Shown here in pieces: positions 3,435 to 63,765 of a stretch of 64,000 bases of DNA; position 1 is the stretch's first letter; every line of letters starts with the position of its first letter. Origin of the DNA: Escherichia coli (GTDB lineage: Bacteria; Pseudomonadota; Gammaproteobacteria; Enterobacterales; Enterobacteriaceae); the NCBI RefSeq assembly GCF_003991155.1, contig NZ_CP031293.1, one strand, 5' to 3'. Both the position numbers and the translations under genes were made by a program. The notes under the pieces were generated by a model. The model was not told the DNA's origin. It did no database searches and saw only the letters and a program-made list of their open reading frames with translations.

Positions 3435-4838
3435 ATGTCTGACCATAATCCACTGACATTAAGACTGAATCTGCGGGAAAAAATCGCCTATGGTATGGGC
3501 GACGTCGGTTCGAATTTAATGCTCTGCATCGGTACTCTGTATCTCCTCAAATTTTATACCGATGAATTAGGGATGCCTGCTTACTATGGCGGGATTATCT
3601 TTCTGGTGGCGAAGTTTTTTACCGCATTTACCGATATGCTCACCGGATTTTTACTCGACTCGCGGAAAAATATTGGGCCTAAAGGCAAATTTCGTCCCTT
3701 TATTTTATATGCAGCGGTTCCGGCGGCGTTAATTGCAACGCTCCAGTTTATCGCCACCACCTTTAGTTTGCCGGTTAAAACGACGATTGCCACCGCACTG
3801 TTTATGATGTTTGGACTTTCATACAGTCTGATGAACTGCTCGTATGGTGCGATGATCCCGGCCATTACCAAAAACCCCAATGAGCGCGCGCAGCTCGCGG
3901 CTTACCGCCAGGGTGGTGCAACCATAGGGCTATTGATTTGTACCGTGGCGTTTATTCCGTTGCAGTCGCTTTTTTCTGACTCAACCGTCGGTTATGCCTG
4001 TGCGGCACTGATGTTCTCCATTGGCGGCTTTATTTTTATGATGCTGTGCTACAGAGGCGTCAAAGAGCATTATGTGGACACGACGCCAACCGGACATAAG
4101 GCCAGTATTCTCAAATCATTTTGCGCGATATTTCATAATCCACCTTTGCTGGTATTGTGCATTGCTAACCTGTGTACTCTGGCGGCATTTAATATCAAAC
4201 TGGCGATTCAGGTCTATTACACCCAGTATGTGCTAAATGATATTAATTTATTGTCGTGGATGGGATTCTTCAGTATGGGATGCATCCTCGTCGGCGTATT
4301 ACTGGTGCCATTAACTGTAAAATATTTTGGTAAAAAACAGGTTTATTTAGCTGGCATGGTGCTGTGGGCGGTTGGTGATATCCTGAATTATTTCTGGGGA
4401 AGTAACTCTTTCACTTTCGTCATGTTCTCTTGTGTCGCCTTTTTTGGCACGGCCTTTGTAAACAGCCTGAACTGGGCACTGGTGCCAGATACCGTAGATT
4501 ACGGTGAATGGAAAACCGGTATTCGTGCCGAAGGTTCTGTTTATACCGGTTATACCTTCTTTCGTAAAATTTCTGCCGCACTTGCTGGCTTCTTGCCAGG
4601 CATTATGCTGACGCAAATAGGTTATGTTCCCAACATCGCGCAAAGTGATGCGACATTACAGGGTTTGCGTCAGCTCATTTTTATCTGGCCTTGTGCACTG
4701 GCAATTATTGCTGCATTGACGATGGGATTCTTTTACACACTCAATGAAAAACGGTTTGCACTGATTATTGAGGAAATTAACCAACGCAAAAATAAAGAAA
4801 TTGAGACAGAAGAAAAAACGGCTTCCGTAACGTTATAA
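3435..4838 (+). CDS. yihO: GPH-family transporter (sulfoquinovose importer in K-12)
   Basis: ORF 3429..4838; ATG at 3435 preceded by AAGGAG; paralogous to yihP. Confidence 0.85.
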   Translation: MSDHNPLTLRLNLREKIAYGMGDVGSNLMLCIGTLYLLKFYTDELGMPAYYGGIIFLVAKFFTAFTDMLTGFLLDSRKNIGPKGKFRPFILYAAVPAALIATLQFIATTFSLPVKTTIATALFMMFGLSYSLMNCSYGAMIPAITKNPNERAQLAAYRQGGATIGLLICTVAFIPLQSLFSDSTVGYACAALMFSIGGFIFMMLCYRGVKEHYVDTTPTGHKASILKSFCAIFHNPPLLVLCIANLCTLAAFNIKLAIQVYYTQYVLNDINLLSWMGFFSMGCILVGVLLVPLTVKYFGKKQVYLAGMVLWAVGDILNYFWGSNSFTFVMFSCVAFFGTAFVNSLNWALVPDTVDYGEWKTGIRAEGSVYTGYTFFRKISAALAGFLPGIMLTQIGYVPNIAQSDATLQGLRQLIFIWPCALAIIAALTMGFFYTLNEKRFALIIEEINQRKNKEIETEEKTASVTL

Positions 4839-4904
4839 ATGTCAATAGCCGCTATTTCCATCCTGGTGGGTGGCGGCCTCCCTACGCTTAAAAATGGACT
4901 TATT

Positions 4905-5597
4905 ATGAAAAAGATTAATGCAATAATTCTATTATCCTCTCTGACCTCTGCCTCGGTATTTGCTGGCGCATACGTCGAAAACAGGGAGGCATATAATCTC
5001 GCCTCCGATCAGGGCGAGGTTATGCTACGTGTGGGTTATAACTTCGATATGGGCGCGGGTATTATGTTAACCAATACCTACACCTTTCAGCGAGAAGATG
5101 AACTCAAACATGGATATAACGAAATCGAAGGTTGGTATCCGTTATTCAAACCAACCGATAAATTAACCATCCAGCCCGGTGGCTTAATTAATGATAAGAG
5201 TATCGGTTCGGGTGGTGCTGTTTATCTGGATGTTAACTACAAATTTACTCCATGGTTTAACCTGACGGTACGTAATCGTTTTAACCATAATAACTATAGC
5301 TCAACCGATTTGAACGGTGATCTGGATAATAATGACAGCTACGAGATTGGCAACTACTGGAACTTTATTATTACCGATAAGTTCTCATATACCTTTGAAC
5401 CGCATTATTTTTATAACATTAATGATTTCAATAGCAGCAATGGTACGAAGCATCACTGGGAAATCACTAACACCTTCCGTTATCGCATTAATGAACACTG
5501 GCTCCCTTATTTCGAATTACGCTGGTTAGATCGTAATGTCGAACCGTACCACCGCGAGCAAAACCAGATTCGTATCGGGACGAAGTATTTCTTCTGA
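4905..5597 (+). CDS. ompL: Outer membrane porin OmpL
   Basis: ORF 4839..5597; true start likely MKKINAIILLSS (signal peptide) at 4905; ends in the aromatic C-terminal residue typical of beta-barrel porins. Confidence 0.85.
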   Translation: MKKINAIILLSSLTSASVFAGAYVENREAYNLASDQGEVMLRVGYNFDMGAGIMLTNTYTFQREDELKHGYNEIEGWYPLFKPTDKLTIQPGGLINDKSIGSGGAVYLDVNYKFTPWFNLTVRNRFNHNNYSSTDLNGDLDNNDSYEIGNYWNFIITDKFSYTFEPHYFYNINDFNSSNGTKHHWEITNTFRYRINEHWLPYFELRWLDRNVEPYHREQNQIRIGTKYFF

Positions 5598-5605
5598 TGT
5601 AAAAC

Positions 5606-5683
5606 TGCCGGATGAGGCGAAAACGCCTTATCCGGCCTACGGTTGATACGGTTTTCGTTGGCCGGATTAAGCCACATCCGGCC
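5606..5683. repeat. REP/BIME elements (two REP units)
   Basis: gccggatgaggcgaaaacgccttatccggcctac and ggccggattaagccacatccggcc: canonical REP palindromes. Confidence 0.75.
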
Positions 5684-5688
5684 ATTAA

Positions 5689-6954
5689 TTAAGCTTCAGC
5701 CGCCAGCATCTCTTTCTTACGTTGGCTAATACGCTTAACCAGCATTACGGAAACCACCGCACCACAGAATGCGAAGCAGGCCATAATGCCAAACACGATT
5801 TTGTAGCCAATAATCCCCGGATTTAAATCCAGAATGTAGCCATACAGACTGAAGCAGAACATCGCCGGGGCGTAACCAATAAAGCTACCCAACGCCATCG
5901 CCGCGCCTGTTTTATTTTCAGCAATTTTTGCTTCGCCGATAGGTGCAAAAAATACGGCTCGCTGTGTAAAGACTATCGCGCCAAAGCCCAGCGTACATGC
6001 CATCCCTAAATAGACCGGCATACTTTCGTGCGGCAGCATAATCAACAGTACGAGCGCAGCGGTACTGATGATAAAGGTGTAGCATAGATATTTACTCGGC
6101 GATTTCAGGATCTTATCTGAAATCATGCCACCAATCGGTCCACCAATCATTTTCAGACAGTATTGGTTAATGATGCCGTAAGCCCCCACCAGCGCAACGG
6201 GCAATAGATAGATGTTTTTCAGGAATGGAATGAAGAATGTCAGGCCACAGTAAACCGCGTAAACGAAGAAGACGTTAAAAGCGATAAGCCAGATGGTTTT
6301 GTCTCTCAGCACCGAGGTCATACTGGTGTTTTGCGATGCTCCGTCTTCTTTTTTCACCTCAACGGACGGTGCCTCTTCTTTGTCATTCAGGACAAAGAAA
6401 ATAATAATGCCTACGGCAATCACAATAAGGGAATAGAACCAGATGCCTGCTTTAAAACCCAATAAGCCACTGCCAAACCAGGTAAATACTGCCAACGCAG
6501 AAAATGCCACCACGGTATCGACAATGCCACGCCCTGTTTCGAAGAAGCCAAACAACCGACCTTGTTGTTCGCTATTGCCCAATCGACTTACCGACTTGAG
6601 CAAGACCGGCCAGTTCATCATGTCGCAAGTAACGCCAAATAGCGCCCAGACAAAGAGGATGCCCCAATACCCCGGCATTGTCGTCAAATAAACACCCAGT
6701 AATCCTGTCGCAATGAGTGAGAATGACATGGTGTATCTGCGCGGTAGTTTATCGGCAAAATAAATAGACAGAAAAAAACCCACTGTCGTGACAAATGAGT
6801 TTACCGACATAGCATTACCAATTTGACCATTGGTCAAATGGAAATATTCCTGCATCGGGATATAAAACGCATCTTTCAGCGACGGTAATTTATAAATTGT
6901 ACCGCCACACAATGTTAATAGACTAAATAACGCCCATTTCTTTTTCGTGAGCAT
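5689..6954 (-). CDS. yihN: MFS transporter
   Basis: 421-aa ORF, hydrophobic multi-TM protein; position between ompL and yihM as in K-12. Confidence 0.85.
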   Translation of the reverse strand: MLTKKKWALFSLLTLCGGTIYKLPSLKDAFYIPMQEYFHLTNGQIGNAMSVNSFVTTVGFFLSIYFADKLPRRYTMSFSLIATGLLGVYLTTMPGYWGILFVWALFGVTCDMMNWPVLLKSVSRLGNSEQQGRLFGFFETGRGIVDTVVAFSALAVFTWFGSGLLGFKAGIWFYSLIVIAVGIIIFFVLNDKEEAPSVEVKKEDGASQNTSMTSVLRDKTIWLIAFNVFFVYAVYCGLTFFIPFLKNIYLLPVALVGAYGIINQYCLKMIGGPIGGMISDKILKSPSKYLCYTFIISTAALVLLIMLPHESMPVYLGMACTLGFGAIVFTQRAVFFAPIGEAKIAENKTGAAMALGSFIGYAPAMFCFSLYGYILDLNPGIIGYKIVFGIMACFAFCGAVVSVMLVKRISQRKKEMLAAEA

Positions 6955-7055
6955 AACATCCCCTAAGCGATTTTTAAAATCACTGTTTTAAAGGCAATAA
7001 GATACCGACCATTCATATGGAATGGTTTTATTAACTGCGTATGAGTTAAAACTTA

Positions 7056-8036
7056 TTAGTGGTTCAGAAGATGGTTTGCCTCTTGTTTGATTTGTTGTAG
7101 TACGTTACGCACATGATTTATCTGATTAATTGCATCTTCTTTTTCTTTACGTAACCGCGCATCCAGTAAATGATTTTCTGGCAATGGTGTTTCACTCATC
7201 TGGCGATAAGGGATCCACGGATTATCATCTTCGTCTTCAAAGCGGAACGCCGGCGCATAGTAATCAACCTCTTCTTCCAGGCCATATGCCGTCACCTGCG
7301 GCTCATCATCACCCAGGCATATAAGGTGCGTTAATAACGCTTTGAACGGCATATCACCCTGACCTGAAATACAGGCTTTATGACCCAGGCCACCCGGTTC
7401 TTTAACGATCAAGGCATCTTTGATATGGACCTGGGTAATATGCGGTGCCATCGTTTTTAAAGCGTCGATGGGATGCTCATTTGCATTGATCATGTTCGCA
7501 AAATCAAACAGTAAGGAAAGAGATTCCATCTCACTTTCTTTGACCAGCGACACCAGCTCATGACTTTTTAAATCTTCATGCTGCTCGATCGTAAAAGTCA
7601 GGCCGCTGTCCTGATACGTTTCCCGTACATAGGCAATGTCGTTAGCGATAATCGATAATACATCGCGCAAATTACCTTCATAACGCGGATAAAAACGTAC
7701 GGAGGATGCCCCAGTTTTCAACGCGATGGCGACGGCTTCGTCAATAGATTTTTTATCTGAGGCGCTGGTTTCAATATGAATATCAAGGTTCAGACGGCGG
7801 GCTTTATCCCCAAAGGCAGAGAGTTCTTTATCGTCCATATTACCAAGAGAAAAACGCTCTCCATCCAGAACATGGATTTTGACGCCACGTAGATTATTTT
7901 CACTTGCGATATCAAGTAAATCAGCAGGCAACACTCTTTCCAGTCGCATATTTAAATGAAAGGCATAAGCATGTAAATAAAGAGGAAGAGTGTCGACACG
8001 TTGTAGAATCTTTCTTGCGTTATTTATTGTCACCAT
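7056..8036 (-). CDS. yihM: Sugar-phosphate isomerase/epimerase-like (TIM-barrel) protein
   Basis: 326-aa ORF; conserved synteny with yihL and yihN. Confidence 0.8.
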   Translation of the reverse strand: MVTINNARKILQRVDTLPLYLHAYAFHLNMRLERVLPADLLDIASENNLRGVKIHVLDGERFSLGNMDDKELSAFGDKARRLNLDIHIETSASDKKSIDEAVAIALKTGASSVRFYPRYEGNLRDVLSIIANDIAYVRETYQDSGLTFTIEQHEDLKSHELVSLVKESEMESLSLLFDFANMINANEHPIDALKTMAPHITQVHIKDALIVKEPGGLGHKACISGQGDMPFKALLTHLICLGDDEPQVTAYGLEEEVDYYAPAFRFEDEDDNPWIPYRQMSETPLPENHLLDARLRKEKEDAINQINHVRNVLQQIKQEANHLLNH

Positions 8037-8043
8037 AAAACAC

Positions 8044-8754
8044 CTACAGATTAATGATGAGGTCTACGGCCTCAAATCGCCAATATTCAATATCTATCTG
8101 GACAATATTGCCCTGCTGGTCGGCGCGATGCTTTTCAATTAAGATCGCTGGCATACCCGCAGAACCGCCAAGATACTTGCTGATATCGCCCGGCATTCTG
8201 ACGGGTTTGAAAATCAATTTTTTTACTACCGTCTCTTTTTGGTAGCACTTTTCCCAGACTGCAGAAAATGAGTGGTTTTCAAGTTGTTCAATAAAACCCG
8301 GGGCAACTTCAGGATTAATATATGTTTCGTGATAGAAAACTTTATGTCCTTCCAGCGCCCCCCAGCCGGTGATGCGATAGAGTTCAGTTGATGGTGTCAC
8401 TGCAATCAGTGGCGCGAGCGTCTCGGGAATATCGCTGGTACGGTTTTTCTCGGTAAACCCCCAGGAAGGCTCTCGTCCTTGCTCAATTGCGGCCCGCTGA
8501 AAGCTCGCTGACAGCTCCGGACTGTAATTAAATCGCGGCTGGGTCACGAACCACCCCTTACGATCCTTACGGAAGATTTTGGATTCTGCCTCGAGGTTCA
8601 ACAACGCCTGGCGCAGCGTCATACGTTTAATGCCCAGCAGTTCTCCCAGCTCTCTTTCTGAAGGGAGTTTTCCACCCGGCGTGGTGATGCCATCTTTCAA
8701 CCACCGATCCAGTTTCTCTTTTGCATTTTCTACGGTGGATTGATTCTCCGCCAT
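8044..8754 (-). CDS. yihL: GntR-family transcriptional regulator
   Basis: 236-aa ORF with N-terminal wHTH motif (ERELGELLGIKRMTLRQAL) and C-terminal effector domain. Confidence 0.85.
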   Translation of the reverse strand: MAENQSTVENAKEKLDRWLKDGITTPGGKLPSERELGELLGIKRMTLRQALLNLEAESKIFRKDRKGWFVTQPRFNYSPELSASFQRAAIEQGREPSWGFTEKNRTSDIPETLAPLIAVTPSTELYRITGWGALEGHKVFYHETYINPEVAPGFIEQLENHSFSAVWEKCYQKETVVKKLIFKPVRMPGDISKYLGGSAGMPAILIEKHRADQQGNIVQIDIEYWRFEAVDLIINL

Positions 8755-8932
8755 TGTTTAATCCTTTTGGTTTAAACCAGATGAAGCATCTTACGCTTAC
8801 GCCAAAAAAGAAAGCAATTAACGGTGTATGACTTTGCAGATAATTGTGACAAAGCTCTCTATTGACGTAATCACAGACTTATAAGGGAGATACTCGCATT
8901 GGTGTGCGCTCACGACAGGTAAAAAAAAACCT

Positions 8933-8944
8933 GCCAGCGATGGC
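8933..8944. repeat. Target-site duplication (left copy), gccagcgatggc
   Basis: Exact 12-bp direct repeat flanking the IS at 8933-8944 and 10371-10382. Confidence 0.8.
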
Positions 8945-10370
8945 TAATGCCAGTCAGTTAAGCAACTGACTGGCTCTTTTTCGGGGCTGTGGGGTATTTC
9001 CAGGGCCTCTCCTTTACCACTCTCGGGAAGGCCCTTTCCCTTCTTGTCGGTAATTTCACAAGTTGTCCCATACTTGCAAGATCGCGCATCAGCTCCGGTA
9101 TACGTCCCGGTGAAGCGCCCTGCAATGTCATCAGCATTCTCATCACCATTCCGCATGATTCTGAGAAACTCAGTTGATTCGGCCAGTAACCTTTCAGATG
9201 TTCCGCCATTTTAATCATCTGATATCTCACCAGATTATAAGCCAGTAAGACACCCCACAGCTCTTGCTCCACAAGCTCCGGTTTTTTACTTCTCAGCGTC
9301 AGCCTGCTCAGTTGCATCGTCTGTTTTATCTCCCTGTATCCCAGTTCGATTTCCCAGCGATGACTGTACAGATCCGCCATTTCTCCTCCGGGGAAGCGCA
9401 TGGCGTCCGTCATCGACGTCAGCAGATGGCAGACTTTTCCTTTGCGCGTCACGGTCAGCAGGCGGGCTGTCACTTCATTTCCCAGTCCCGGCCACTTTTT
9501 TCGTGCCTGCGGGCTGGTTTTCAGCTTCACCAGATGATCGCCTTTACCCAGTTTTCTGATCTCTTCATATTGCGCTCCCTTTCTGAGAGGTATCATCCAG
9601 TGGCGGTGTTCTCCCGCCAGGCTCCAGGCATTTAACAGTCCCAGTGAGTAATAACCTTTATCCATTAACGTCAGAGTGTTATCGCCGGTTTGTTCTATAA
9701 GTTGCTCAGCAAGCTCATTTTCGCTGTTCTTCATCGTGCCGAAGGCTGCAGCCGTCAGCAGATGGCTGGTCAGTTCCATCTGGCAGACCATTTTGACCTG
9801 CGGGTAGAGCGCCGGGTTCCCGGCATGTGTCTGGCGGGGGAAGGCTGCATCGTTCTCTGGTGTATCCGGTGTGCGCCAGAACACACCATCGATGGCCAGC
9901 AAGGTCAGGCCGCACCAGTGCGGATGCGGCGTGGCGTTATGCCAGAGCTGCGCTGTTTTCGTGAACACGCGGCGGACAGCCTCACTTCCCAGGCGCTGGC
10001 GGGCCTGAATAACGGCACTGGGGGCAACGAAGGGGCGATTGCCCGGCAGCATGATGTCCAGGCGATTCACAATCTGGTGAAGAGGTTCTTTACGCTCAAG
10101 CGCCATGCCAACAATACACCAGACCATCATTTCGAGGGGAAGACGGCGCTTGCGTAGCGTTACAGTACCTGATTCGGCAAGGCAACGAGAGATGAGTTCG
10201 GGGTCGAGGTAATCCCCCAGAGAAGTCAGTGGGTTACGCAGAGAATCGTAACGGGATACCAGATCAAGAGCCTGTCCAATGTGCATAAAAAAATCCGGAA
10301 ACAAGTGAGCGTTTCCGGATTCTTACACAGCCACTGGATCGGTCAACTGATCCTTAACTGATCGGCATTA
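8945..10370 (-). mobile_element. IS4-type insertion sequence, 1426 bp, apparently intact
   Basis: Single long transposase ORF; imperfect terminal inverted repeats TAATGCCAGTCAGTTAAG (left) and CTTAACTGATCGGCATTA (right, i.e. TAATGCCGATCAGTTAAG in reverse complement); flanked by 12-bp direct repeat; length matches IS4 as recalled. Confidence 0.85.
8958..10286 (-). CDS. insG: IS4-family (DDE) transposase, 442 aa
   Basis: ORF 8958..10304 (track start is TTG); first ATG gives [16 protein letters not shown]...; sequence recognised as the E. coli IS4 transposase. Confidence 0.85.
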
Positions 10371-10382
10371 GCCAGCGATGGC
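10371..10382. repeat. Target-site duplication (right copy), gccagcgatggc
   Basis: Identical to 8933-8944. Confidence 0.8.
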
Positions 10383-10408
10383 AGGTTTTTTATAACTAAA
10401 AAACGAAA

Positions 10409-12232
10409 TTAATCGTCTTTCGGTGCGCGGTTGGCGCGACGACGATCGTTTTCCGTCAGGTGACGTTTACGAATACGGATAGAGGTCGGAGTCACTTCTA
10501 CCAGTTCGTCATCATCGATGAACTCCAGAGCTTGTTCCAGAGTCATGCGGATAGGCGGAACCAGAACAACGGCTTCGTCAGTACCGGAAGCACGCATGTT
10601 GGTCAGTTTCTTACCGGTCAGGCAGTTTACAGTCAGGTCGTTAGAGCGGCTGTGAATGCCGATAATCTGACCTTCGTAAACTTCTGCACCGTGACCGAGG
10701 AACAGCTTACCGCGGTCCTGCAGACCGAACAGCGCGAACGCTACCGCTTTACCCTGACCGTTAGAGATCAGTACGCCGTTCTGACGCTGACCCACTTCAC
10801 CCGGACGTACGTCGTCGTAGTGGCTGAAGGTGGAGTACAGCAGACCAGTACCGGAAGTCATGGTCATGAACTCAGAACGGAAGCCAATCAGACCACGGCT
10901 TGGGATCACGTAGTCGAGACGTACGCGGCCTTTACCGTCTGGATTCATGTTTTTCAGGTCGCCTTTACGTTCGCCCAGCGCCTGCATCACAGAACCCTGA
11001 TGCTGTTCTTCAACGTCCAGCGTCACGTTTTCATACGGCTCTTGTTTACGACCGTCGATTTCACGGAAGATTACTTTCGGACGGGATACCGCCAGTTCGA
11101 AACCTTCACGACGCATGTTTTCAATAAGAACAGACAGGTGCAGTTCGCCACGACCAGAAACGCGGAACGCATCGGCGTCTTCGGTTTCTTCTACGCGCAG
11201 CGCAACGTTGTGTACCAGTTCTTTGTTCAGACGATCCAGGATCTGACGAGACGTTACGAACTTACCTTCTTTACCGCAGAACGGCGAGGTGTTAACGCAG
11301 AAGAACATAGAAACGGTCGGCTCATCAACGGAGAGTGCCGGCAGCGCTTCAACGTTTTGCGTGTCGCAAACGGTGTCAGAAATGTTCAGTTCGCCCAGGC
11401 CCGTGATCGCCACGATATCGCCAGCTTCCGCCAGATCGGTTTCAATACGTTCCAGACCGAGGTGGCCCAGCACTTTACCGACTTTCGCGTTACGGGTTTT
11501 GCCTTCGCTATCGATGATAGTGACCTGCTGGTTCGGCTTCACTTTACCGCGCTTGATGCGGCCAATGCCGATAACGCCAACATAGCTGTTGTAATCGAGC
11601 TGAGAAATCTGCATCTGGAACGGACCGTCAAGGTCAACGTCCGGCGCAGGAACGTGGTCAACAATCGCCTGATACAGCGGGGTCATGTCTTCCGCCATAT
11701 CTTCGTGGTCCAGACCCGCGATACCGTTCAGCGCAGAAGCGTAAACGATCGGGAAGTCCAGCTGCTCGTCGGTCGCGTCGAGGTTAACGAACAGATCGAA
11801 TACCTGATCCACAACCCAATCAGGACGCGCGCCAGGGCGGTCAACTTTGTTGATAACAACAATCGGCTTCAGGCCGTAAGCAAACGCTTTTTTGGTTACG
11901 AAGCGCGTTTGCGGCATCGGGCCGTCAAATGCGTCAACCACCAGCAGCACTGAGTCTACCATGGACATTACACGTTCAACTTCACCACCGAAGTCGGCGT
12001 GCCCCGGGGTATCAACGATGTTGATACGGTAATCATTCCATTTGATAGCGGTGTTTTTCGCGAGGATGGTAATCCCACGCTCTTTCTCCAAATCGTTGGA
12101 GTCCATCACGCGCTCTTGGGTTTCGGCACGAGAGTCGAACGTACCGGATTGTTGGAGCAGCTTGTCTACCAGGGTGGTTTTACCATGGTCTACGTGCGCG
12201 ATGATGGCGATATTACGCAATTTTTCGATCAC
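10409..12232 (-). CDS. typA: Ribosome-associated translational GTPase BipA/TypA
   Basis: 607-aa ORF, N-terminal G-domain [13 protein letters not shown]-like domain architecture. Confidence 0.95.
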
Positions 12233-12383
12233 AACTTTGCCTCAGGCATTAGAAATAGCGCGTTATTGTACACGGATTAATCGCACTACAAAACAGGATC
12301 ACAAACATCCTCCGCAAACAAGTATTGCAGAGTCCCTTTGTGATCGCTTTCACGGAGCATAAAAAGGGTTATCCAAAGGTCAT

Positions 12384-12462
12384 TGCACCAACATGGTGCT
12401 TAATGTTTCCATTGAAGCACTATATTGGTGCAACATTCACATCATGGTGCAGCCCTTTTGCA
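12384..12462 (+). promoter_or_regulatory. NtrC (NRI) enhancer sites upstream of glnA
   Basis: TGCACCAacatGGTGCt (12384-12400), GCACtatatTGGTGCA (12417-12433) and a third GGTGCA..TTGCAC element, matching the TGCACC-N5-GGTGCA consensus. Confidence 0.75.
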
Positions 12463-12505
12463 CGATGTTAAGCATGATAACGCCTTTTAGGGGCAATTTA
12501 AAAGT

Positions 12506-12521
12506 TGGCACAGATTTCGCT
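12506..12521 (+). promoter_or_regulatory. glnAp2 sigma-54 promoter (-24/-12)
   Basis: TGGCAC-agatt-TCGCT about 85 nt upstream of the glnA ATG; matches recalled glnAp2 sequence. Confidence 0.8.
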
Positions 12522-60320: not shown

Positions 60321-60576
60321 CGCCATAGTCGCTAAATCTGATGATTAAGCTCACGCAATTTCAACGATTTTTTTAATCTCAAAACCATACAGCATCAAAA
60401 AATTTGTTGCTGTATGCCACTCTTTGACTCCCTTCACATTCGTCATCACACCACCTGCTGAATGCAAAAATTTCGTTGCTGTGCGGCAAACTTTTTTCCT
60501 GTTTTGTGCCGCTTTTCTCCTGAATACTCGTTCTCAGAACAACTGGATCGTTTAAACATCAGACAGGAGATTTACC

Positions 60577-61245
60577 ATGACGCAATCCATTTTTCAGGCT
60601 CAACCCTTTGAATTACCTTTTGATCCGCGCACAACTGCACTGGTCATGATCGACATGCAGCGTGACTTTGTCGAAGCAGGGGGCTTCGGTGAGGCACTGG
60701 GCAATGATGTTTCACTGGTACGCACGGCTATCGCACCATGTACAGAGGTGCTGGCAGCCGCACGTCAAAAAGGAATTATGGTTATTCATACTCGTGAAGG
60801 CCATCGTGCAGACTTAAGCGACTGCCCGCCAGCCAAACTGACGCGCGGCGGAAAAACCTTTATTGGTGAACCAGGACCGATGGGACGCATTCTGGTCAGA
60901 GGTGAAGCAGGTCATGACATCATTCCTGAACTGTACCCGGTGGCAGGCGAACCGGTGATTGATAAGCCTGGCAAAGGCGCGTTTTATCAAACCGACTTAC
61001 ATCTGATTTTGCAAAACCACGGTATCAAGACGCTGATAGTTTGTGGTGTTACAACCGAAGTTTGCGTAACCACCACCGTGCGCGAAGCAAATGATCGTGG
61101 CTATGAATGCATTATCCCGGAAGATTGTGTCGGCTCCTATTTCCCGGAATTCCAGAAATACGCCCTCGAGATGATCAAAGCACAAGGTGCCATTTTCGGT
61201 TGGGTTACTGATTCCAAAGCCATTATTGCAGGCCTGGAAGGCTAA
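60577..61245 (+). CDS. Isochorismatase-family cysteine hydrolase (amidase-like)
   Basis: 222-aa ORF; Asp in MIDMQRDF, Lys in KPGKGAF, Cys in VCGVTTEVCV: the D-K-C triad pattern of this family. Confidence 0.75.
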   Translation: MTQSIFQAQPFELPFDPRTTALVMIDMQRDFVEAGGFGEALGNDVSLVRTAIAPCTEVLAAARQKGIMVIHTREGHRADLSDCPPAKLTRGGKTFIGEPGPMGRILVRGEAGHDIIPELYPVAGEPVIDKPGKGAFYQTDLHLILQNHGIKTLIVCGVTTEVCVTTTVREANDRGYECIIPEDCVGSYFPEFQKYALEMIKAQGAIFGWVTDSKAIIAGLEG

Positions 61246-61250
61246 CACCG

Positions 61251-62111
61251 ATGGTACAGGTTACGCTTTGCGCATCGTCGTTGGGATATCTTTTCCCGCA
61301 GAATGAAACGCAAGATTTACGTCTACATAGCGCTTTTAAACATGCGGTAAATCTGTATTCAGACGCGGGAACATTCATCACTCTGTTGTGTGCGCAAACG
61401 TATCTGAATCTCCCTGATGCAGCCAGAGTCTGGCTACCTGAATGTTGGGACTGGCGAAGAGAGATTGCCCATTCAGATCCCATTCAGTTAACCCCAGGCT
61501 TACTGCGGACACCTCGATTTTGTGTGGCGCTCGAAAACGCAACGCTCTGGCAGTCGCCATTTGTGGGGGGAATGCTGACACTTGAGGCATTCCCTTTGGT
61601 TTTCCAGCACTACCCAACGATGGCATCGCAACGGCTTTTATTTTGTCTGGAACATAACGTTCAAAGCACATTGCACCTGCCGGATAGTCTCACGCACCAG
61701 GGATTAGCGATTATGGAGCATCCAGATGCGCTGGAACGCCAGGTGCCACAACTGATCGGCTTTGGTAAAGGCTTAACGCCCGATGGAGATGACTATTTGT
61801 TGGGCTATCTGGCAGCACTCTGGTTATGGCAACTCCCTGCACCACTTGCCGATCATCAATACCGGTTGCAGCAGGTAATTGATCAACATGCGCACAACAC
61901 CACGGATATCAGTCGTCATTATCTGGAGCGTGCGCTTCAGGGACATTTTTCAGAACCGATTTGCCAGTTACTCGCACAACTGGTTGGGAGTGCATCGGCA
62001 ATGACAATCGCATCCTGTGCAGAACAGGTCATGCAATTTGGCGCAACGTCAGGAGTAGATTGCCTTGCAGGAATGCTGCATGGCTTTCGAACCCTGAACA
62101 CCATAAATTGA
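61251..62111 (+). CDS. Conserved hypothetical protein, possibly DUF2877 (YahE/YlbF-like)
   Basis: 286-aa ORF starting 5 nt after the hydrolase stop; GFGKGLTPDGDDYLLGY motif; assignment by position next to the FdrA-like gene, not verified. Confidence 0.45.
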   Translation: MVQVTLCASSLGYLFPQNETQDLRLHSAFKHAVNLYSDAGTFITLLCAQTYLNLPDAARVWLPECWDWRREIAHSDPIQLTPGLLRTPRFCVALENATLWQSPFVGGMLTLEAFPLVFQHYPTMASQRLLFCLEHNVQSTLHLPDSLTHQGLAIMEHPDALERQVPQLIGFGKGLTPDGDDYLLGYLAALWLWQLPAPLADHQYRLQQVIDQHAHNTTDISRHYLERALQGHFSEPICQLLAQLVGSASAMTIASCAEQVMQFGATSGVDCLAGMLHGFRTLNTIN

Positions 62112-62205
62112 TTTCAACCTTTTCTCCCGTAGCCCGTTTATGGGGCTACACGGGGATGCTTTGCCCGAATTTTGCTATCGGGCGGAATGAAACAGGCGTA
62201 ACAGC

Positions 62206-63765
62206 ATGAAAGTTAAATATAAAGTTTTCAGTAATCTTTATCAGGACTCAGTTTCTCTGATGCAGATTTCCGCGCAAATCAGCAAGTTGCCCGGTATTCA
62301 ACAGGCCTCGGTCGTCATGGGAACACCCAATAATCTCGAGCAATTGAGCGATGCGGGTCTGGGTAACGAAATCAACGCCAGTCCCAATGATTTAGTGATT
62401 GCAGTCATGGGTGAAGAAGATATTTGCAATGAAGCACTGGTACTGGCCCAGCAACGTCTGACCAGCAAACCCGATGATGAAACGGATAGTGGCATTAAAA
62501 CACCGGAAAAGGTCAGCCTGGAAATGGCACTGGAAGCCGAGCCCGAAGCCAACCTGGCACTCATTTCTGTACCGGGAGACTACGCCGCCGCCGAAGCAAT
62601 TAAAGCGTTAAACCTCGGAATGAACGTGATGATGTTCAGCGATAACGTCAGTATCGTGCAGGAAAAATCCATCAAAACGCTTGCCCGAGAACGTCAGCGC
62701 ATCGTAATGGGACCTGACTGTGGAACCGCCATTGTTAACGGCATTCCGTTAGGCTTCGCTAATGTGGTGAAACGCGGAGCAATTGGTGTTATTGGCGCGT
62801 CAGGCACCGGGCTACAGGAAGTGACTTGCCGAATCGACCAGCTCGGAGCGGGTATTTCTCAGGCGTTGGGAACAGGCGGACATGATCTCAGTGAAGAGAT
62901 TGGTGGAATATCGATGCTCTTCGCTTTAGATGCGCTGGCGCAAGACGATGAAACTCGCGTGATTGTGCTTATTTCAAAACCGCCTTCACCGATCGTTGCC
63001 CGGACTATTCTGGAGCGTGCCGAGGCTTGTGGAAAACCCGTGGTGGTGAATTTCCTCGGTGCGAATCCGCATGATCTGGCACGTCCCAATATCACCGCGG
63101 CCACCACACTTGCCAGCGCCGCAAATATCGCCGTGGCGTTACTGAATGATCAACCACTTCCGACTATCGAGACCGAAATTTCCTGCGACGATCTCACAAT
63201 GTTACAAAACGCCTGCCAGCGCCTGCCAGCCCATCGCCAGGCGATACGCGGTGTTTTCGCCGGAGGAACCTTCTGCTACGAAGCGCAACTTATCTGCCAA
63301 CAAAAGGGATTCAGCGCAGCCTCCAATACGCCAGTTGCGGGTAATCGTGCTCTGGCAAATATCTGGCAAAGCGAAGATCACACGTTGATCGATATGGGCG
63401 ACGATGATTTCACCCGTGGCAAACCGCATCCAATGATCGACCCGACTCTGCGCAATCAACGTCTGCTCAACGAACTCAACGACTCACACACTGCCGTCGT
63501 GTTATTCGACCTGGTACTTGGTTATGGCGCTTCCACGACGCCTGCCAGCGAATTACTGGACCAACTTTCACACATCGACATGAATAACGCACCGTTGCTG
63601 ATTGCGCACGTTTGCGGAACGGAAGCTGATCCGCAAATACGCAGTCAGCAGATAAGCGCACTACAAAATGCAGGGGTCATCATCGCCAGCAGCAATGCAC
63701 AGGCGGCGTTATGGGCCAGCACCGTTGCACAGACTCAGTTGCAGAAAAAGGGGCTAAACGCATGA
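62206..63765 (+). CDS. FdrA-family protein (CoA-binding, succinyl-CoA synthetase alpha-like fold)
   Basis: 519-aa ORF; motifs recalled from FdrA: QDSVSLM, VMGTPNN, NVMMFSDNV, MGPDCGT, IGVIGASGTG, PHPMIDPTLRNQ. Confidence 0.75.
   Translation: MKVKYKVFSNLYQDSVSLMQISAQISKLPGIQQASVVMGTPNNLEQLSDAGLGNEINASPNDLVIAVMGEEDICNEALVLAQQRLTSKPDDETDSGIKTPEKVSLEMALEAEPEANLALISVPGDYAAAEAIKALNLGMNVMMFSDNVSIVQEKSIKTLARERQRIVMGPDCGTAIVNGIPLGFANVVKRGAIGVIGASGTGLQEVTCRIDQLGAGISQALGTGGHDLSEEIGGISMLFALDALAQDDETRVIVLISKPPSPIVARTILERAEACGKPVVVNFLGANPHDLARPNITAATTLASAANIAVALLNDQPLPTIETEISCDDLTMLQNACQRLPAHRQAIRGVFAGGTFCYEAQLICQQKGFSAASNTPVAGNRALANIWQSEDHTLIDMGDDDFTRGKPHPMIDPTLRNQRLLNELNDSHTAVVLFDLVLGYGASTTPASELLDQLSHIDMNNAPLLIAHVCGTEADPQIRSQQISALQNAGVIIASSNAQAALWASTVAQTQLQKKGLNA

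Follow-up and report, generated by a model that had tools for sequence, protein, structure and literature searches.

Stem-loops within polycistronic messages are known to stabilise or process the transcript between cistrons, as in the REP hairpins of malE-malF, the RNase E processing of papB-papA and the intercistronic hairpins of the Rhodobacter puf operon. RNase E prefers to cleave at RN↓WUU (the arrow marks the cut) in single-stranded RNA beside a stem-loop. In the stabiliser of the ompA-type 5' untranslated region, a 5' stem-loop is followed by a second hairpin just upstream of the ribosome-binding site. We describe here a 94-nt spacer between an AllH-like and an FdrA-like gene of Escherichia coli that invites comparison with these systems. 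It resembles the intercistronic stabilisers in holding a stable stem-loop that lacks a U-tract, inside a polycistronic operon and at a junction where unequal expression is plausible, and in the way structure outweighs sequence in the first of its hairpins. Unlike the REP stabilisers, the element is single-copy, locus-specific and made of two hairpins, the second of which is conserved in sequence and tied in position to the start codon of the next gene. The arrangement recalls ompA in its pair of hairpins ahead of a single-stranded ribosome-binding segment, with a hairpin abutting the ribosome-binding region. Unlike the primary 5' end of ompA, however, the spacer element is internal, and its second hairpin could act as a 5' end only after cleavage or from an unmapped start.

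Three further classes were considered for comparison. A GC-rich hairpin 3' of a stop codon is typical of Rho-independent terminators, but the spacer has no U-tract, and the next gene on that strand belongs to the same pathway. Like the cis-regulatory leaders and riboswitches of Rfam, the spacer shows a covariation-supported structure directly 5' of a coding sequence and conserved across genera; unlike them, its loops are unconserved, no expression platform was detected and Rfam 15 gives no match. The operon shares the families FdrA/AllF, DUF1116/AllG, DUF2877/AllH and carbamate kinase with the K-12 clusters allFGH-allK and yahEFG-yahI. Unlike the genes at the junction studied here, however, yahE and yahF of K-12 overlap by 11 nt, and allF is the first gene of its operon. 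A covariance model of the element found nothing at either K-12 cluster, so that the element is absent from these paralogues. The K-12 paralogue allFGH encodes oxamic transcarbamylase (PMC11326118).

The host operon and its distribution

The window, that is, the whole 64-kb stretch of DNA that was analysed, is in this region identical to E. coli chromosomes including that of SMS-3-5. The operon is an accessory one, inserted in the interval between ysgA and metE. Its genes up to and including the one that follows the spacer are listed below.

60577-61245, + strand: cysteine hydrolase (isochorismatase family), first gene of the operon
61251-62111, + strand: DUF2877/AllH-like protein, 286 aa, second gene of the operon (Pfam PF11392 AllH, E 4e-27)
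62112-62205, + strand: intergenic spacer, 94 nt, between the TGA of the allH-like gene and the ATG of the fdrA-like gene
62206-63765, + strand: FdrA/AllF-like protein, 519 aa (Pfam CoA_binding and Ligase_CoA; fdrA in identical E. coli loci)

The genes after the fdrA-like gene are, in order, those for a DUF1116/AllG-like protein, a carbamate kinase, an allophanate-hydrolase-related protein, a cytosine-type permease and a LysR regulator. In the annotation of the identical SMS-3-5 locus the AllH-like frame, which stops with TGA, is a DUF2877 protein. A preliminary description of this DNA had reported a 94-nt spacer within an otherwise tightly packed operon, and this was borne out: only 5 nt separate the hydrolase gene from the allH-like gene, and the annotation of the identical locus has overlaps at fdrA/DUF1116 and at DUF1116/arcC. 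The operon is presumably co-transcribed as one mRNA.

The operon is carried by 1559 of 5426 complete E. coli genomes (~29%), among them Nissle 1917, ABU 83972 and ST131 strains, and by a further 125 plasmid records that include APEC ColV plasmids. Extraintestinal and probiotic strains of E. coli are enriched for it. The entire operon is present on pAPEC-O2-211A-ColV (4678-12521), beside IS66 and relaxase fragments, and also on a K. pneumoniae plasmid, in both cases with ~96% identity to the chromosomal copy. The island has been described as GR29 of strain BEN2908, with speculation on a role in pyrimidine or nitrogen catabolism (PMC12928451). Upstream of the operon, a terminator-like hairpin with a T-run lies at 60475-60487, 3' of ysgA, and a sub-threshold Rfam match to Mu-gpT-DE (E 0.34) lies at 60518-60579, immediately 5' of the hydrolase start.

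The spacer itself belongs to the island alone. A search of the 5426 E. coli genomes matched it to a single copy per island, at a median of one place per genome, which rules out a REP, BIME or MITE repeat, and no match to the 94 nt was found in the 3867 E. coli genomes without the island, even at E up to 10. No Rfam 15 family overlapped 62112-62205 at E up to 10, ruling out a known RNA family; neither in the window nor in any of five orthologous loci did the spacer match a family at the gathering score. Elsewhere in the window, RNAs at the gathering score fall within 12314-50149 on the - strand; they comprise an rrn operon with two tRNAs and 5S, together with CsrC, Spot 42, Erse, ES222 and StyR-44, all far from the spacer. 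A search of the literature for an RNA element at fdrA/DUF1116/DUF2877 returned nothing.

Anatomy of the spacer and its orthologues

The preliminary description had called a perfect 7-bp stem, GTAGCCC/GGGCTAC, with a 7-nt loop at 62129-62149. Its position and letters proved exact and the inner stem is correct, but an outer helix that extends it to 12 bp, as well as a second hairpin, had been overlooked. Folding gave the following parts.

62112-62122, + strand: unpaired 5' segment, from the stop codon to hairpin 1 (minimum free energy structures)
62123-62156, + strand: hairpin 1, 12 bp, RNAfold domain energy -18.5 kcal/mol
62123-62127 / 62152-62156, + strand: outer helix of hairpin 1, TCTCC/GGGGA, with C62128 unpaired
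62129-62135 / 62143-62149, + strand: inner helix of hairpin 1, GTAGCCC/GGGCTAC, 7 bp, with loop GTTTATG at 62136-62142
62150-62151, + strand: AC bulge in hairpin 1, which with C62128 makes a 1x2 internal loop
62157-62159, + strand: linker TGC between the hairpins, 3 nt
62160-62168 / 62178-62186, + strand: hairpin 2, 9 bp, TTTGCCCGA/TCGGGCGGA, RNAfold -11.4 kcal/mol
62169-62177, + strand: A/U-rich loop of hairpin 2
62187-62205, + strand: A-rich single-stranded tail with a weak Shine-Dalgarno (SD)-like CAGG (62193-62196), then TAAC

The 3' end of hairpin 2 lies 19 nt from the ATG in the E. coli window. A 78-nt core of the spacer folded at -31.7 kcal/mol, with z = -3.7 against dinucleotide shuffles; for a 111-nt stretch the folding z was -2.0. 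Two short reading frames are seen in this sequence: a 17-codon frame at 62156-62209 (+), which starts at an ATG in the linker and whose TGA overlaps the ATG of fdrA (ATGA), and a 4-codon mini-ORF at 62187-62201 in E. coli. Their starts are specific to E. coli, with ATG replaced by ATC in other genera, and a leader peptide was therefore ruled out.

We collected orthologous loci from an alignment of DUF2877 homologues (48 loci, one genome per species) and by exact-protein look-up (12 further loci), which provided 39 spacers. Forty loci had the same operon type, hydrolase-allH-fdrA-allG-arcC, in which allH and fdrA never overlap. All 27 Enterobacterales loci with a long spacer kept the order hydrolase-allH-[spacer]-fdrA-allG-arcC, and the spacer was the sole long gap of the operon. 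Across these loci the AllH-like protein is only 35-62% identical to that of E. coli and evolves far faster than its operon neighbours, the corresponding identities being 81-92% for the hydrolase, 71-87% for AllG, 66-86% for ArcC and 62-80% for FdrA. One contig labelled Chryseobacterium sp. 18061 is identical across the operon to the locus of Citrobacter sp. 18056, probably through cross-contamination or mislabelling in a co-culture study. In E. coli strain HH45 (L002, ~4240-4360), the island appears to end at a point that corresponds to ~62150 in the window, just past hairpin 1; this was traced to a poly-G assembly artefact, and a deletion or recombination junction was rejected.

The junction took three forms. 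In the first, found in Enterobacterales, a spacer of 77-122 nt holds two hairpins; it occurs in Escherichia, Citrobacter, Salmonella Newport, Buttiauxella, Edwardsiella, Rahnella, Serratia, Chania, Budvicia and Limnobaculum, and in several metagenomic relatives. The second, of 124-183 nt, belongs to the Caballeronia/Burkholderia group and has its own conserved hairpin and further structure. In the third, spacers of 32-60 nt carry no comparable hairpins; this form is that of Paraburkholderia, other Caballeronia, Dyella, Silvimonas, Amantichitinum and two enterics. Since such operons do without the hairpins, the element would be a tuning device that the operon can dispense with.

In the enteric two-hairpin form, hairpin 1 has 9-16 bp (mostly 11-15) and hairpin 2 has 4-13 bp (mostly 6-11), joined by a linker of 0-10 nt (mostly 3-7). 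The linker consensus is AUCGC, after which comes UUUGCC. Hairpin 2 ends 16-22 nt before the AUG (mostly 18-21, with one outlier at 28). Hairpin 1 begins anywhere from ~6 to ~31 nt past the stop codon. Conserved nucleotides sit at the hairpin bases and in the linker (GGGGAUCGCUUUGCC...GGCAGUAAGAAACAGG); the base of the hairpin 2 stem is conserved in sequence as UUUGCC...GGCRG, and an ACAGG(Y)A block in the tail is kept in all alignments. Both loops and the inner stem are free to vary in sequence and length. An interruption of the hairpin 1 helix 4-5 bp from its base recurs, in Burkholderiaceae spacers too. Individual copies have decayed, with hairpin 2 degraded in Salmonella Newport and the 3' arm of hairpin 1 lost in Serratia Ag1. 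Hairpin 2, the A-rich tail and the weak SD thus form a block of fixed geometry to which hairpin 1 is tethered by a short linker. The conserved unit is both hairpins together, and hairpin 1 alone is half of it. With this block fixed near the AUG and the distance to the allH stop free, the anatomy points to the downstream gene.

The Burkholderiaceae hairpin resembles enteric hairpin 1 in layout, with an outer helix, a 2-nt 3' bulge and an 8-bp inner helix. This element may be distinct from, or distantly related to, the enteric one, homology being suggested by layout only. This Burkholderiaceae hairpin, of 11 bp, lies ~90 nt upstream of the fdrA ATG in ten Burkholderia/Caballeronia loci (L012, L014, L015, L018, L022-L024, L029, L037 and L066), and a helix predicted in the spacers of this group, UCUGG/CCGGA, touches the SD. 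In one metagenomic spacer of 183 nt, the hairpin is preceded by 8-mers of the GGAATCGA/GTAATCGA type in tandem (L066:2880-2960).

A leaky intrinsic terminator or attenuator, in which hairpin 1 and the UGCUUUG after it would stop part of the transcripts and leave less downstream mRNA, is suggested by the GC-rich 12-bp hairpin followed by 4 U in 7 nt, and by a CUUUUG after the second hairpin in three Burkholderia/Caballeronia loci (L012, L014 and L015). The stem, however, is followed by UGCUUUGCC, and a pattern scan for terminators called nothing in the spacer (fewer than 5 T in 8), in line with the missing U-tract of the preliminary description. The UUU is moreover the paired 5' base of hairpin 2, and the U-run is broken or missing in Citrobacter and Salmonella (CUGUACC). 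We consider partial termination very unlikely.

Covariation and strand assignment

Covariance models were used to collect and align the enteric copies. A model built from five seed sequences and the E. coli fold (R1) recovered orthologues outside its seed at E 4e-9 to 1e-5 and had no other match in the window; a scan of the 64 kb with filters off gave a single match. A second model from eight seed sequences (R2) matched eight further orthologues at E 6e-17 to 3e-8, E-values from such models being rough. Since the E. coli-clade models reached the Yersiniaceae copies weakly (E 0.01-0.4), that clade was given its own MAFFT alignment.

In the R2 alignment of 19 distinct sequences, 14 of 21 pairs showed changes on both sides, and 9 of the 12 pairs of hairpin 1 had double, compensatory changes. 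Compensatory cells numbered 56, against 20 +/- 4 in shuffles. The covariation score was 0.401, as compared with at most 0.117 when partners were slid by 1-3 columns, and none of 500 shuffles reached it; the aligned sequences are related by phylogeny, and shuffle counts here and below are therefore not probabilities. A covariance-model alignment leans toward its own structure, and the count was for this reason repeated on plain MAFFT alignments. For the Escherichia coli/Citrobacter/Buttiauxella clade (12 sequences), 76% of cells were paired against at most 49% in slid controls, with a score of 0.362; for the Rahnella/Serratia/Chania/Limnobaculum clade (9 sequences), 88% were paired against at most 60%, with a score of 0.320. 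None of 500 shuffles reached the score in either clade. RNAalifold, run on an 18-sequence MAFFT alignment, independently recovered hairpin 2, in which columns 89 and 103 read CG in 7 sequences, UA in 7, UG in 3 and AU in 1.

Folding energies and divergence gave a similar picture. Orthologous spacers had a mean folding z of -2.4, against ~-1.0 in length-matched coding controls from the same loci (Wilcoxon p ~4e-4). Fourfold-degenerate sites of the flanking genes are saturated between genera (28-44% identity), and the 3' 55 nt of the spacer are up to 76% identical between genera. The allele on the ColV plasmid, with 96% overall identity, has one change in the spacer, outside the stems, and the divergent allele of E. 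coli E69 maintains a 14-bp hairpin 1 by paired changes. These alignments indicate that the structure of the spacer is under purifying selection. The spacer holds an RNA motif that is peculiar to this operon family, supported by covariation and not yet catalogued; it is absent from Rfam, and its operon is present in ~29% of complete E. coli genomes.

A functionless origin, as a chance palindrome or the decayed remnant of an old terminator or repeat element, would fit with the absence of the element from some orthologous operons. However, compensatory changes are kept across genera whose synonymous sites are saturated, and the element is single-copy with no repeat family. Covariation effectively refutes this explanation, which we regard as hardly credible.

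The preliminary description had named conservation in homologous operons as a check, and hairpin 1 passes it. At least nine genera retain both hairpins at the same spacing, with compensatory changes, and this conservation lends good support to a functional element that probably acts on the differential expression of the upstream and downstream genes. The greater sequence conservation of hairpin 2 and its position locked near the start codon shift the emphasis to the downstream gene.

We then considered which strand or molecule carries the function. The minimum free energies of the sense and antisense strands are the same (-23.6 kcal/mol), and the two cannot be separated thermodynamically. Exchanges of U.G with U-A and of U.G with C-G are neutral on the sense strand only. 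Among 17 well-supported pairs there were 237 Watson-Crick, 43 G.U and 8 A.C cells, and several pair positions alternate between U.G and U-A or between U.G and C-G. This wobble asymmetry, together with the direction of the operon, led us to assign the structure to the sense strand, and a functional sense-strand RNA structure is in our view very probable. An antisense promoter-like site, CTGATA-17-TATATT, at 62244-62216 (-) within the opening codons of fdrA would direct transcription through the spacer; such sites were no more frequent than in shuffles.

The preliminary description had also raised a protein-binding site. As a DNA-level feature, the spacer could be an operator bound by the LysR-type regulator of the cluster or by some other dimeric protein, or it could hold an internal promoter of the fdrA block. 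Inverted repeats have the classic shape of an operator, a LysR gene closes the cluster, and the equal folding energies of the two strands would agree with such a role. The inner-stem arms of close relatives, however, read GUAGCCC, GUAGUGC, CGUGGCA, UGCAGAG, UGCCGGA and UGCUGAAA, with pairing kept throughout; sequence that is free while pairing is kept argues against a sequence-specific DNA operator, and no conserved half-site was seen in alignments of the orthologous spacers. The excess of G.U over A.C (43 to 8) also speaks against it. A pattern scan found no sigma-70 promoter on the + strand of the spacer, and no sigma-54 spacing could be fitted to it by eye. The DNA-level reading is thus disfavoured, and we consider it extremely unlikely.

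The downstream start and candidate mechanisms

The ribosome-binding site of the FdrA-like gene is weak, as had been described; its strongest pairing with the anti-SD reaches -2.5 kcal/mol. Orthologues that carry the hairpins all have a weak SD (-2.5 to -4.9 kcal/mol). In short spacers without hairpins (L026-L028, L030, L032, L034-L036, L038, L040 and L042) the median is -5.4, down to -10.1 kcal/mol (Mann-Whitney p = 4e-4, with phylogeny a confounder). Partition-function folds of the orthologous spacers left the SD and AUG ~50% unpaired on average, with no consistent pairing partner for either. Sequestration of the SD, or a thermometer-type switch, was ruled out by this half-open SD and the lack of a consistent partner.

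The structure could be part of an undescribed family of cis-regulatory RNAs, in which a factor, in response to the substrate of the pathway, gates downstream translation or stability, and with it the energy-yielding module of FdrA, AllG and carbamate kinase apart from the hydrolase/AllH pair. The factor might be a pathway metabolite or other small molecule, a protein encoded in the operon or acting globally, or a small RNA, and the structured spacer of Burkholderiaceae may be a second branch of the family. The covariation-supported structure, the conserved hairpin bases and linker, and the recurring interruption of hairpin 1 that extends to the Burkholderiaceae would all suit such an RNA, which would be new in view of the lack of a match to any known family. 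Its loops and inner stem vary, however. No conserved loops or junctions that could form a ligand pocket were found, conservation being placed instead at the helix bases and linker. As to an expression platform, we found no conserved alternative pairing that hides the SD and no terminator pattern. The element is also intercistronic, away from the 5' end of the operon. A CsrA site in particular was rejected: the conserved GGA is base-paired, within the 3' arm of the outer helix, whereas CsrA sites carry theirs in loops; the loops here have no GGA, and the SD contains GGA in some genera only. Factor-responsive gating is therefore, in our judgement, improbable; if true, it would give a handle on the substrate of the pathway.

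Translation could also be tuned without any cleavage. The hairpins would block ribosomes that terminate on allH from scanning and re-initiating, so that fdrA uses its own weak ribosome-binding site, and the A-rich tract presented by hairpin 2 would serve as a standby site or as a landing site for S1. This would account for the placing of hairpin 2 at a fixed 18-22 nt from the AUG, for the co-conservation of the unpaired A-rich tract and weak SD with the hairpins, and for the stronger SDs of hairpin-less orthologues. The overlap of yahE and yahF in K-12, where no spacer exists, would then make coupling and uncoupling alternative designs. For this purpose, however, hairpin 2 alone would be enough, and the fixed short distance of hairpin 1 is left unexplained; the SD comparison, as noted, is confounded by phylogeny. 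A purely translational leader appears rather unlikely to us, if less so than gating by a factor.

We tentatively favour, as a possibility short of a probable one, an intercistronic element that acts by processing or stabilisation, one of the roles that the preliminary description had raised. This is preferred over insulation because it explains the joint retention of both hairpins and the short linker. A stable stem-loop in a co-directional, packed operon, with gene order and spacing conserved over 40 loci and compensatory changes that no shuffle equalled and that slid controls fell far below, is what would be expected of an intercistronic stabiliser. As proposed, the spacer would be a structured segment of the polycistronic sense mRNA that serves as intercistronic punctuation, uncoupling the upstream pair (cysteine hydrolase and AllH-like) from the downstream block (FdrA-like, AllG-like, carbamate kinase and the following genes). 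An endonucleolytic cut would fall within the conserved linker, which is short, or beside it (AUCGC↓UUUGCC). The upstream message would be left with hairpin 1 as a 3'-terminal barrier to exonucleases, and hairpin 2 would become a 5'-terminal protective stem at a fixed 18-22 nt from the start codon, where it could keep the weak ribosome-binding site open and shielded from upstream sequence. Cleavage would in this way change the ratio of upstream to downstream products.

We compared the linker with the RNase E preference given above. About half of the orthologues fit RN↓WUU, with GC↓UUU in E. coli, Buttiauxella and Edwardsiella. The fit is poor for CUGUA in Citrobacter and Salmonella and for CC↓UUU in Rahnella, and at the foot of the hairpin 2 stem the UUU forms weak U.G pairs.

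The element might also serve synthetic biology as a compact part for intercistronic insulation. The operon family offers three designs of this junction: a weak SD behind a structured spacer, a stronger SD behind a short one, and the overlapping genes of the yah paralogue. Together they make up a natural comparison set for the post-transcriptional setting of subunit ratios.
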